From positions 4 through 64,003 of the forward strand of contig JBAQNP010000017.1 of assembly GCA_049303905.1 (NCBI GenBank): a stretch of DNA of 64,000 nucleotides. The letters run 5' to 3'. This document shows positions 35,970-62,204 of the stretch, piece by piece; the stretch's first letter is position 1; each line of letters opens with the position of its first letter. Made by a program: the position numbers and the translations under genes. Origin of the DNA: Candidatus Moraniibacteriota bacterium. Its GTDB lineage: Bacteria; Patescibacteriota; Minisyncoccia; Moranbacterales; UBA2206. Below the pieces are notes generated by a model, which was given only the letters and a program-made list of their open reading frames with translations, was not told the DNA's origin and made no database searches.

Positions 35970-36089
35970 GAGCATCCCTGCACCAATTCGCAGATTAATT
36001 TTTATATTACTTACATCTAAGCCGAAGGCGACCACACGCATAAATATTTTTACAATATAAATTCTCTATTGGAATTGGTGCGGGATAAC
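35970..36089. repeat. MITE-like element with terminal inverted repeats (copy 1)
   Basis: GAGCATCCCTGCACCAATTCGC ... ATTGGAATTGGTGCGGGATAAC; internal GCCTTCGGC-type hairpin; second copy at 62065-62204. Confidence 0.6.
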
Positions 36090-36170
36090 GGCTTTATGCT
36101 ACTTTTACCCTATATATTGTATATAGTAATATCATTATACCACAAGTGAAAAATCTGCCAAGTACCAAAA

Positions 36171-36201
36171 AACAGCCGATTTTTGGCTGTTTTTTGTGTG
36201 C
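36171..36201. terminator. Bidirectional intrinsic terminator (AACAGCC-GATTTTT-GGCTGTT, A/T runs both sides); second similar hairpin at 36235-36270
   Basis: Downstream of the large secreted protein gene on the minus strand. Confidence 0.5.
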
Positions 36202-36322
36202 CTGTGGATAACTTTTTCGGAAAAATTCAACAAAAAAACAGTTCGAATTTATCAGAACTGTTTTTTGTGAACTACATATAACTTTTAATTTATATAAAAA
36301 ATTATTATCTAAATTATAACTA

Positions 36323-60369: not shown

Positions 60370-60376
60370 TCGCGAT

Positions 60377-62029
60377 TTACATCATACCACCCATTCCGCC
60401 CATCCCCGGCATTCCTCCGTGCATATGTTCATCTTTTTTCTCTGGCAGATCTGTGATGACTGCTTCAGTGGTGAGAAGCATGGCTGAAACTGAGACAGCG
60501 TTTTCAAGAGCTGTTCGGGTGACTTTTAGAGGATCAATAATTCCCGCCTTTAGCATATCCTCGACATATTTGTCCTCCATCGCGTCATAACCAAAATTAA
60601 TCCCGGCACTTTCAATAACCTTGTCCAGAACTACTCCTGGATCTTTTTTTCCGGCATTAGCTGCAATTTGCTTTAGCGGTTCGCCGAGTGAGCGGATAAG
60701 TGTTTCGTAGCCAGCTTTGTAATCATAACTTTTGTCCGCATGATCTTTCGTTTGAAGTTCTTTGGACGCTTTGGCCAAAGCCACGCCTCCGCCGGCCACA
60801 ATTCCCTCTTCCACCGCGGCGCGAGTAGCCGACAGGGCATCTTCCATTTTATGTTTAATATAAGTCAGTTCAGTTTCCGTGGCCGCGCCAACCTTGATCA
60901 CCGCTACGCCACCGGAAATTTTGGCAATTCTTTTTTGCAATTTTTCTTTATCATAATCACTATCAGAGTTTTCGACTTGCTTTTTGATCTGTGCTACACG
61001 GGTTTCAATTTCTTCTTTTTTCCCTTTGCCACCCACAATAGTAGTATCATCTTTAGTTGCCACTACTTTTTGCGCTTGACCAAGCATAGCAAGTTCTGTT
61101 TTCTTCAGATCCAAGCCTTTTTCTTCGGTGATAACTTGTCCGCCAGTTAAAACTGCAATGTCTTCGAGCATCGCTTTTCGGCCGTCGCCATATTCCGGCG
61201 CCTTAATCGCCAAAACATTTATTATCCCTCGAAGCTTATTAACCACTAATGTTGCCAGGGCTTCGCCGTCAACATCATCTGCAATAATCACCAATTCTTT
61301 TTTTCCTCCTTGGGCAATTTTTTCCAAAATTGGCAGAATTTCCGAAATAGCGGAAATCTTTTTATCAGTAATTAAAATATAGGGATCTTTAAGTTCCGCT
61401 TTTTGTGTTTCAACGTCAGTGATCATATATGGAGAAACATAACCTTTGTCAAAATTCATCCCTTCCACAATTTCCTTGGAAAATCCAAAGGTCTGTGATT
61501 CTTCCACGGTGATCACGCCGTCTTTCCCAACTTCTTCCATGACTTCTGCAATCATCTCACCCATTTCTTTAGATTCTGCCGCAATCGTAGCTACCTGAGA
61601 AATTTCTTCTTTGGAATTTACTTTTTTGGAATTTTTGGAAAGTATTTCCACCACATCATTTTTGGCCATTTCCATCCCGCGACGAATTTCAATCGGGCTC
61701 ATCCCGGTTTCCACAAATTTCAAACCTTCATGCGCCAACGCTTGCGTCATAACAGTTGAAGTAGTCGTGCCGTCCCCCGCCACATCATTAGTTTTTGAAG
61801 CCACTTCCTTGATCAGTCCAGCTCCAATATTTTCAAATCTATCCTCCAATTCAATTTCCTTGGCGATAGAAACGCCATCATTGGTAATTGTCGGTGACCC
61901 AAAACCTTTGTCTAAAATGACATTTCTACCTCTCGGCCCGAGAGTAGTTTTTACCGTGCTTGCTACTTTATCGATGCCTAATTTTATTTTCTTTCTGGCA
62001 TCAACCCCTATCTCAATTTGTTTTGCCAT
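60377..62029 (-). CDS. groEL: Chaperonin GroEL
   Basis: Canonical GroEL N-terminus and C-terminal [13 protein letters not shown] tail. Confidence 0.95.
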
Positions 62030-62064
62030 ATTTGTCTGTGAGCGAAGCGAGCAGGAACAAAAAT

Positions 62065-62204
62065 GAGCATCCCTGCACCAATTCGCTTTTAAGTTTTATG
62101 TTAATTATAAACTAAGCCGTAGGCCTGCCTGCCGGCAGGCAGGCGACCACGCACACAAATCTCACTTTTAGAAAAATCTTTATTGGAATTGGTGCGGGAT
62201 AGCC
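62065..62204. repeat. MITE-like element with terminal inverted repeats (copy 2), inserted between groES and groEL
   Basis: GAGCATCCCTGCACCAATTCGC ... ATTGGAATTGGTGCGGGATAGC; internal 22-nt perfect palindrome GCCTGCCTGCCGGCAGGCAGGC. Confidence 0.6.

Follow-up and report, generated by a model that had tools for sequence, protein, structure and literature searches.

Palindromic repeat units that end at start codons in some ultra-small bacteria of the Candidate Phyla Radiation

In a 64,000-nt stretch of DNA from a Candidatus Moraniibacteriota bacterium (assembly GCA_049303905.1, contig JBAQNP010000017.1; the whole stretch is referred to as the window), the same structured repeat stands in front of nrdR and between groES and groEL. 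Is this repeat a mobile element, a functional part of the mRNA, or both? The initial annotation described it as resembling a miniature inverted-repeat transposable element (MITE) and proposed a mobile or RNA-level functional element; judged by comparison with related sequences, a mobile origin is supported and a function at the RNA level is plausible. The interpretation that we prefer, and to which we give an even chance of being correct, is that of a ~160–180-nt MITE/REPIN-like palindromic insertion family, which is targeted to start codons or survives only there and which is now a structured translation leader; the mechanism of transposition and the effects in the RNA are what we infer. It builds on what was observed of homology, architecture, covariation, position and orientation, presence and absence among genomes, and flanking repeats. 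The element is previously undescribed and is found in some ultra-small bacteria of the Candidate Phyla Radiation (CPR).

Two copies of a structured unit in the window

The terminal sequences GAGCATCCCTGCACCAATTCGC (at 35970 and 62065) and ATTGGAATTGGTGCGGGATA (at 36068 and 62182) each occur twice without a mismatch and nowhere else in the window, even when three mismatches are allowed, and none of 100 shuffled sequences contained a match; the two copies reported at first are therefore real. They are 88% identical over aligned columns (70% with gaps counted). A covariance model of the whole unit (R1) recovered only these two strong copies, plus one weak, divergent candidate at 51037-51212. The element lies on the minus strand in both copies, as do nrdR and groEL, and is thus to be read on that strand, as the 5' leader of each gene. 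The left borders had been placed too narrowly: homology extends ~45 nt further and reaches the start codons (Table 1).

The 20-nt, near-perfect terminal inverted repeats of the initial annotation stand in part. The arms are indeed complementary, but their pairing (ATCCC / bulged T / GCACCAATTC with GAATTGGTGC / GGGAT) amounts to 15 bp plus one extra-helical base, not 20 pairs, and the repeats are not terminal as in a MITE, since a conserved 46-nt hairpin (P3) always accompanies them outside the right arm. What had been taken for a UUCG tetraloop is a 3-bp GCC/GGC hairpin with a loop of 3–4 nt, UUC being present only in copy 1. The 22-nt perfect palindrome described for copy 2 is present, the groES-groEL spacer measures 187 nt as estimated (62030-62216), and copy 1 does lie behind the spurious N-terminal extension of the nrdR open reading frame (ORF), whose TTG start at 35986 is artefactual, the real ATG being at 35927-35929. 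A near-twin of the palindrome GCCTGCCTGCCGGCAGGCAGGC, namely CCTGCCTGCCGCAGGCAGG, was seen beside an element in an unrelated contig (L016, ~4418-4440; loci from other genomes are given as L numbers), and small GC palindromes may be recurrent insertions of their own in these AT-rich genomes.

Read in the sense of the mRNA, the unit consists of a domain closed by the helix P1, which holds a GC hairpin (P2) and an AT-rich stretch, followed by P3. The left flank, often (A/G)U(G/C)GC-U, precedes the 5' arm of P1 (AUCCC-GCACCAAUUC), after which come CCAAUAAAG and a variable hairpin. P2 reads GCC-loop-GGC; UUAG comes next, and then ~30 nt that are unpaired and rich in A/U, with GCG as the last bases. 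The 3' arm of P1 is GAAUUGGUGC(A)GGGAU, and P3 starts directly after it with the sequence UGC(U)CAU-UUUUGU..CUGC-[CUCGCUUCGCUC]-(A)CAG-ACAAAAAU-AUGGCA. The helix P1 is formed only from the paired arms, as the arm sequences ATCCCGCACCAATTC are not self-complementary, and it carries an irregularity (A, UA, AA or U.G) at a constant place between CCC and GCAC. At 160–181 nt, non-coding and with no ORF conserved across copies, the unit has the size and coding status of a MITE; a conserved peptide was rejected, as short ORFs on both strands change frame between copies. The start codon of the downstream gene takes one of two positions. Its AUG lies inside the last six bases of P3 in groEL and most Met-Ala genes, or it begins at the last A of P3, as in nrdR (UUGGCA|UG) and elsewhere (AUCGCA|UG, AUAGCA|UG).

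The fold is supported by covariation across copies. RNAalifold and explicit pair counts gave 94.6% paired cells for the whole fold, compared with 31–43% when the partners were slid, with double changes in 11 pairs; the observed covariation was reached in 0 of 500 shuffles. For P3 alone, compensatory double changes were found in 10 of the 16 pairs, which again none of 500 shuffles equalled. The basal pairs of P3, including the start codon, take part in this (CAU/AUG to GAU/AUC; UGC/GCA to CUC/GAG), and a single compensatory change was seen in P2 (GCC/GGC to ACC/GGU, in L004). Within the core subfamily P1 does not vary; it covaries in nested or distant domains, from CCCGCACC/GGUGCGGG to CCCACACC/GGUGUGGG, CCCGUACC/GGUACGGG or CACUAA../..UUAGUG, and CACUAAAAA/UUUUUAGUG is likewise found in such domains. 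The earlier claim of a non-coding inverted-repeat element with a structured core is supported. An alternative pairing also exists: the left ATGGC can pair with the heptamer at the start of P3, which extends P1 and competes with the base of P3, and the minimum-free-energy fold of copy 2 uses part of this pairing. The left ATGGC of copy 2 is probably the ancestral groEL start; it opens an upstream ORF of eight codons (MAIPHQFQ*), which is limited to groEL-type units and L002.

Distribution and signs of mobility

Other genomes were scanned for the exact 20-mer (one genome per species) and, in metagenomes, for the two-arm pattern at spacings of 75–105 nt; covariance models of the whole unit (R1) and of P3 only (R2) were then applied. 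This yielded 17 sites in public CPR contigs (Moranbacteria/Parcubacteria). The element is in sense orientation in all 17 and abuts the start codon in 16; in the other, L020, it lies 15 nt upstream, and the AUGGAG end of the unit runs into the Shine-Dalgarno sequence GGAGGAGG. Orthologous copies are found at groES-groEL (L003-L006, L015, L025, L031) and upstream of nrdR (L001, L008). The downstream genes encode GroEL (in two lineages), NrdR, NrdD, GAPDH, a desulfoferrodoxin-like protein, a small membrane protein, an ATPase of the type IV secretion system (T4SS) type, and the ribosomal proteins L16 (rplP), L5 (rplE), L14 (rplN), S14 (rpsN), L6 (rplF), L36 (rpmJ) and L27 (rpmA). No single pathway unites a chaperonin, ribonucleotide reductase genes, GAPDH, seven ribosomal proteins and a T4SS-type ATPase. 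Beyond the two copies of the window, the family is multi-copy in several genomes, with three units in 2.8 kb in L023 and two each in L021 and L009.

A wider set of domains shares only the stem CCCGCAC...GUGCGGG and has other interiors (L011-L014, L016, L018, L019, L022, L026-2, L031-2). P3 was not seen without a P1 domain in the 202 kb searched, and leaders made of P3 only were rejected on that count. Scan matches in L007, L017/L029 and L024 were set aside as chance, in GC-rich coding DNA. At the Rfam 15 gathering threshold the window contains only two tRNAs, and E-value searches of copy 2 and L023 returned noise; no model of a self-cleaving ribozyme, 6S RNA, thermometer or ribosomal leader matched, and identity with tRNA or tmRNA was rejected, the scans having given just the two unrelated tRNAs. 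Viral contigs held no copy of the element, and literature searches for a CPR repeat or leader returned nothing relevant.

Two arrangements were noted in passing at these loci. In the Parcubacteria ribosomal operon of L021 (2619-3376) the gene order is S17-L24-L14-L5, as against the usual S17-L14-L24-L5 in L023. L014 (12130-12480) contains a tandem pair of stem-closed CCTGCACC...GGTGCGGGG units, one with a 4-nt loop, each followed by GTTGTAGAAA(A)T, a string that is also present just upstream; the arrangement suggests that one target was hit repeatedly or that the target was duplicated.

The copies at orthologous positions are 92–95% identical, whereas the third codon positions of nrdR and groEL from the same species are 54–76% identical. 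Since orthologous copies are kept across species and change more slowly than synonymous sites, the window copies are old, fixed insertions and not a recent duplication. The two window copies are less alike than this (88%), so that the interiors specific to each subtype are kept at each locus rather than homogenised.

Presence and absence nevertheless differ between related genomes, as a MITE-like origin predicts. L032, L033 and L034 are nearest to the window outside its own clade, and their GroEL is 91%, 81% and 85% identical to that of the window, yet the groES-groEL spacers of these genomes are 20–60 nt long and empty, and no copy of the element was found in 74 kb of them. L004 is more distant (GroEL 79% and GroES 41% identical to the window proteins), yet it has a unit that matches copy 2 in 93% of the aligned columns. 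In L021 and L023 together the S10/spc operon holds five units, and no site is occupied in both. In L023 two P1 domains that are 99% identical are joined to different P3 hairpins, and two P3 hairpins that are 96% identical are joined to different domains. A second stem-closed domain is nested in the P3 loop in L006, L009 (twice) and L010, and both nested domains of L009 have short direct repeats at their borders (CTCG, CTTCG) when compared with paralogues that lack the interruption.

The search for target-site duplications gave a mixed answer. None is present at the ends of the inverted repeats. The whole unit, by comparison, has 5-nt direct repeats on either side at three independent sites, ATGGC for the groEL type (copy 2 included) and in L002, and ATCGC at rplP of L021, with near-matches of 4/5 at rpsN of L023 and in L028; copy 1 has no such repeat. 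Both flanking repeats are matched by a complementary heptamer at the start of P3, which changes with them: GCUCAU goes with ATGGC and GCUGAU with ATCGC. Removal of the unit and one ATGGC from copy 2 leaves a normal, tight groES-groEL junction, TAA-ATTTTTTGAG-ATGGCAAAACAA. A plain MITE does not predict the single orientation of the element or its restriction to gene starts.

Leader, mobile DNA or both

Near-consensus sigma-70-type promoter matches lie upstream of both copies (Table 1), and neither a consensus sigma-70 promoter nor a terminator was found inside either copy; both are therefore probably transcribed within the mRNA. The nrdR promoter is also present in L002, where nrdR follows it directly, without an element. 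The CIRCE operator (controlling inverted repeat of chaperone expression; TTAGCACTC-N9-GAGTGCTAA, 62584-62610) is located upstream of groES, and copy 2 sits between the cistrons of an apparently HrcA-type groESL operon. The element itself is not CIRCE, from which it differs in sequence and position. Several other candidates were rejected: an internal promoter, as -10-like strings inside the copies are at chance level for AT-rich sequence; an antisense promoter inside nrdR (TTGAAT-18-TATAAT, + strand), whose -10 box is not conserved in L001 or L008; a NusB boxA, as the 5' strand of P3 is only loosely like UGCUCUUUAACAA and the key C varies (C, G, A or U); and mimicry of or complementarity to the 16S 3' end, for which only a 9-nt, chance-level identity in some P2 variants was seen. 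The genome encodes NusB and RNase III. The nrdR promoter region (36100-36215, minus strand) contains NrdR-box-like palindromes, ACTATATACAATATATAGGG, and a perfect DnaA box, TTATCCACA (~36205-36213), that is conserved in L001 and L008; L013 has a DnaA box just past its element.

Under the preferred interpretation, a unit would have inserted at an AT(G/C)GC that begins or immediately precedes a gene, and would have rebuilt AT(G/C)GC at its far end, so that the gene kept its start codon. Once co-transcribed with the host gene, P1 would fold away ~110 nt of the insert, and P3 would pair the heptamer UGC(U)CAU with AUGGCA, which would place the start codon at the foot of a weak, A-U-rich hairpin. 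The long unpaired A/U-rich loop beside the start codon could serve as a loading pad for the ribosome, and the folded unit as a portable translation-initiation leader in a genome nearly devoid of Shine-Dalgarno sequences (a Shine-Dalgarno-like tetramer occurs within 20 nt of the start in 6 of the 48 long ORFs of the window, and leaders are A/U-rich). Opening of P3 would gate the start codon, either by binding of the ribosome or S1 or by a competing extension of P1, because the upstream ATGGC, where present, pairs with the same heptamer and extends P1 instead. RNase III, for which the window has a gene, might also cleave P1. The unit may raise, lower or merely preserve expression of the host gene. 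As for orientation and position, either insertion is targeted, or only those insertions survive that rebuild a working initiation region, or both apply.

Several observations weigh against this interpretation. Copy 1 and ~8 other units lack the flanking repeat; two L023 units share an AUCGCA end while their left flanks are unrelated, and, apart from the unit flanked by ATCGC, two GCUGAU units have no left repeat. Missing left repeats and shared AUCGCA ends imply that the repeats may belong to the unit, in which they would offer an alternative pairing, and not be target duplications; the left repeat may thus be an optional part. No transposase or autonomous element with these ends was found in the ~340 kb examined or in viral contigs, and the inverted repeats are not at the ends of the unit. 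The high conservation could stem from recent spread rather than from function. A hairpin over a start codon would normally lower, not raise, translation. Finally, in 14 of 15 copies P3 folds more stably as the complement of the mRNA, by 2.8 kcal/mol on average, which an RNA-only model leaves unexplained and which fits a selected single-stranded DNA fold at least as well. The main uncertainty is the form in which the selected fold acts: RNA, DNA or both.

The strand preference is what a single-stranded DNA intermediate, as in transposition of the HUH/Y1 type, would predict, and it leads to the first alternative: a selfish element, resembling IS200/IS605 derivatives or REPINs, that transposed as single-stranded DNA, with selection on the + strand hairpins and with an effect on the mRNA that is incidental and tolerated. 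We regard this as unlikely on balance. P1 would be an imperfect palindrome with an extra-helical T, and the heptamer ATGAGCA, just 5' of the foot of P1, would be a guide that pairs at either border with GCCAT, the pentamer of cleavage and target. In IS608, the target is chosen through base pairing to a guide that lies 5' of the hairpin foot; loops of the d(cGNAg) type make DNA hairpins unusually stable. On the + strand, the tip of P3 consists of 4 bp, tandem G.A/A.G, GC and a GNA triloop (GAGCGAAGCGAG; GAG-GUA-CGAG in another subtype), and the loops of P2 are always G..A (GNA or GNNA). An extra-helical base at a fixed place in P1, an internal heptamer that is complementary to and covaries with both flanking pentamers, and a patchy distribution with near-identical copies within a genome would all be accounted for. 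P3 in the mRNA sense contains 11 A.C cells as against ~2 G.U, but this excess goes back to only ~4–5 independent events. Over the whole fold, the strand call from G.U and A.C counts (16 versus 12) was rejected as uninformative; only P3 and the loops favour the + strand, and P1, with equal energies on both strands, shows no preference. The ends of IS200/IS605 elements are two small, separate hairpins without a long-range inverted repeat, and slower change than at synonymous sites, as seen in the orthologous copies of close relatives, is not expected of a selfish insert in decay. A tblastn search of the ~340 kb gave no match to an IS200-type/Y1 transposase, which is weak evidence, as the TnpA query was approximate, and no lone arms were seen beside a transposase in the examined loci.

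A more specific version, which we consider doubtful, would be a guide-directed single-stranded DNA transposon of a new kind, which homes to start codons: the heptamer by the bulged hairpin foot would pair with ATGGC (the Met-Ala start of highly expressed genes) at both borders, and the element would insert one way round, regenerate the start and hide by folding in the mRNA. If true, it would be a non-coding counterpart of the introns and inteins that hide inside essential genes.

The constant sense orientation in a 5' UTR or between cistrons, the covariation-supported structure and the strong conservation relative to synonymous sites would also suit a vertically inherited, immobile cis-regulatory RNA (an RNA thermometer, or a leader that binds a protein or ligand) that was recruited by multiple genes in ancient times. 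Pairing of the AUG with a U-rich strand recalls thermometers of the fourU type, and groEL is among the host genes. We nonetheless think this explanation distinctly improbable: the downstream genes have no common pathway and no Rfam family matched, while strictly vertical descent is difficult to reconcile with the empty sites of L032-L034 next to the filled site of the more distant L004, with the non-shared sites of L021 and L023 in one operon, with the 99% identity of two L023 P1 domains and with nested insertions.

A third explanation, to which we assign a low probability, is that of an RNA processing site, at which RNase III would cut P1 in a polycistronic mRNA and leave the downstream cistron with P3 as a stabilising 5' hairpin, as for Correia elements. 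P1 is a 15–17-bp double-stranded RNA stem with a conserved bulge, the enzyme is encoded in the window, and many copies are intercistronic (groES-groEL, nrdR-nrdD, infA-rpmJ, S10/spc operon). RNase III usually prefers roughly two helical turns, a length that P1 does not reach, and a stabiliser needs no exact placement of the start codon in its stem. Binding and cleavage of Correia elements by RNase III have been described (PMC2649163).

Chance or a recent local duplication, without family or function, would be in keeping with only two strong copies in the window but has practically no probability left, being refuted by the absence of matches in shuffled sequence, the dozens of related copies at orthologous and new sites in other genomes, and the covariation.

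Among known systems, the element is most like Correia elements, ERIC and REPINs in its working, all of which are palindromic, non-autonomous repeats that are co-transcribed. It fails defining features of each, with inverted repeats away from the termini, no TA or other regular target-site duplication, arms unlike REP palindromes and a single orientation; the lock to the start codon is its unusual feature. REPINs (REP sequences mobilised by RAYT; Bertels & Rainey 2011, PMC3116915) are likewise short, non-coding and extragenic (~100 nt), and their long hairpin is built from two inverted arms with a spacer between them; they occur in multiple copies, are maintained in lineages and do not encode a transposase. 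In the present element, however, the arms are not REP-type palindromes, P3 lies outside them, and the unit is tied to start codons in both orientation and position; a RAYT was not found (~340 kb, approximate query), and the hosts are CPR bacteria rather than Proteobacteria.

The Correia elements of Neisseria resemble it in being 100–155 bp long, with inverted repeats, in lying beside genes, in forming a co-transcribed double-stranded RNA stem and in altering adjacent expression; they have 26-bp terminal repeats and a TA duplication, occur in both orientations and create promoters (PMC2649163; review, PMC2229807). Our element has no sequence similarity to them, no TA duplication and no consensus internal promoter, and it ends on a start codon.

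IS200/IS605 elements share with it an extra-helical base and hairpin tips favoured on one strand; their fixed 4–5-nt target, complementary to a guide by the hairpin foot, may have a counterpart in the flanking pentamer and internal heptamer of the present unit. The non-autonomous derivatives of this family are known as PATEs (palindrome-associated transposable elements), to which the likeness extends, and target choice by IS608 is guide-directed. That family has two separate, small subterminal hairpins, whereas the present unit combines one long-range helix (P1) with two unlike hairpins (P2 and P3); no TnpA was found for it in the ~340 kb searched with the approximate query, and only some copies have the flanking pentamer.

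ERIC elements occur in both orientations, 3' of genes or between them, and Rickettsia palindromic elements (RPEs) insert into coding sequences without breaking the frame; a link to start codons is seen in neither. Like the present element, both are ancient palindromes that are kept at orthologous transcribed sites across species, tolerate internal insertions and are compatible with expression of the host gene. Both ERIC/IRU and RPEs are listed in a review (PMC10969869). A 2024 review of prokaryotic MITEs does not mention start codons. The E. coli rpsA leader and tisB are structured leaders without a Shine-Dalgarno sequence, or ribosome standby sites. They resemble the unit in that a weak hairpin holds the start codon next to an A/U-rich single strand and the mRNA lacks a Shine-Dalgarno sequence; these, however, belong to single genes, are not dispersed repeats and have no inverted-repeat domain.

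To our knowledge, the CPR/Patescibacteria are a very large and barely studied group, and we know of almost nothing on their non-coding RNA, their mobile DNA or initiation without Shine-Dalgarno sequences. The element would be the first dispersed repeat family described for them, and it sits in the leaders of highly expressed, essential genes (groEL, ribosomal proteins, GAPDH, ribonucleotide reductase). A portable initiation leader would open a way to study initiation that is independent of Shine-Dalgarno sequences and could be used directly as an expression module in CPR bacteria; a start-codon-homing transposon would represent a new insertion strategy. In the annotation of metagenome-assembled genomes the element creates false N-terminal extensions and inflated intergenic spacers, which a covariance model would mask.

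Feature coordinates and other observations in the window

The coordinates are collected in Table 1. In the interval 51037-51500 (+), the stem-closed domain of the possible third relative, which folds strongly, is followed by ~230 nt with GC-rich stems before the terminator of the minus-strand gene. No credible ORF, evident downstream gene or Rfam match was found in this interval, and the domain could be a divergent relative of the element before an unrecognised small gene or RNA.

Table 1. Positions of the repeat units, their parts and the associated promoters in the window (R1 and R2, covariance models of the whole unit and of P3).
Feature	Coordinates	Strand	Support or remark
Copy 1, whole unit in the nrdR 5' untranslated region, ending at the nrdR start codon (35927-35929)	35927..36092	-	R1 167.2 bits; orthologues L001, L008; NrdR domains confirmed
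Copy 1, P1 5' arm	36072..36086	-	
Copy 1, P1 3' arm including the bulged base	35974..35989	-	
Copy 1, P2 hairpin (GCC-UUC-GGC in sense)	36021..36029	-	
Copy 1, P3 leader hairpin UGC(U)CAAUU...AAUUGGCA; final A is the A of the nrdR AUG	35929..35974	-	R2 63.7 bits
nrdR promoter TTGGCA-16-TGnTATAAT, ~38 nt upstream of copy 1	36134..36161	-	near-consensus sigma-70-type match
Copy 2, whole unit between groES and groEL (left ATGGC repeat to groEL start codon)	62027..62206	-	R1 157.9 bits; alignments; orthologues L003, L004, L005, L006
Copy 2, P1 5' arm, AUCCCGCACCAAUUC in mRNA sense	62186..62200	-	
Copy 2, P1 3' arm GAAUUGGUGC-A-GGGAU; bulged A is the extra-helical T of the + strand	62069..62084	-	
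Copy 2, P2 hairpin GCC-loop-GGC	62116..62124	-	compensatory GCC/GGC to ACC/GGU in L004
Copy 2, 22-nt perfect palindrome GCCTGCCTGCCGGCAGGCAGGC	62123..62144	.	20-nt insertion into P2, in this genome only; absent from L003, L004, L005, L006
Copy 2, P3 leader hairpin UGC(U)CAU...AUGGCA; groEL AUG (62027-62029) paired within the 3' strand	62024..62069	-	R2 72.3 bits; covariation
Copy 2, left 5-nt direct repeat ATGGC (sense), 10 nt past the groES stop	62202..62206	-	same repeat in L002-L006; ATCGC/ATCGC around the rplP unit of L021
Copy 2, right 5-nt direct repeat ATGGC, made up of the current start codon of groEL and GC	62025..62029	-	
groES promoter TTGACA-16-TACAAT and CIRCE operator	62584..62643	-	upstream of groES
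Possible third, very divergent relative: 20-bp closing stem CCACCCCAUAAAAUAAAGAA / UUCUUUAUUUUAU-UA-GGGUGG, U/A hairpin ending AUGGCG	51037..51212	+	weak R1 match (24.6 bits, E ~2e-3); fold z-score -5.6; membership uncertain

A second family of small repeats, the hairpin GATCCTGAAACAAGTTCAGGAT(G/A)ACA, is present at ~27597-27623, 52115-52141 and 57870-57896, and also in L010 beside its element. It shows compensatory changes (CCTGAA/TTCAGG, CCCGAA/TTCGGG, GCTGAA/TTCAGC), and one copy ends exactly on the start codon of the ORF at 56892-57839.

An ORF of 84 amino acids (32882-33136, minus strand) contains only the C-terminal glycyl-radical segment of NrdD (...EVYSRIVGYIRPVSQWNAGKTEEYKDRKEY) and matches just the last ~50 positions of the NCBIfam NrdD models. 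Its DNA is 77% identical to the 3' end of nrdD (33267-33363), and it lies between nrdD and an activase-like radical-SAM ORF (32040-32738). It looks like a GrcA/YfiD-type 'spare part' for the class III ribonucleotide reductase. A DUF3800 protein is encoded at 63090-63722 and a RhuM/Bro-N family protein at 43032-43547, both on the minus strand; the latter adjoins tRNA-Val and may be a remnant of integrated foreign DNA.

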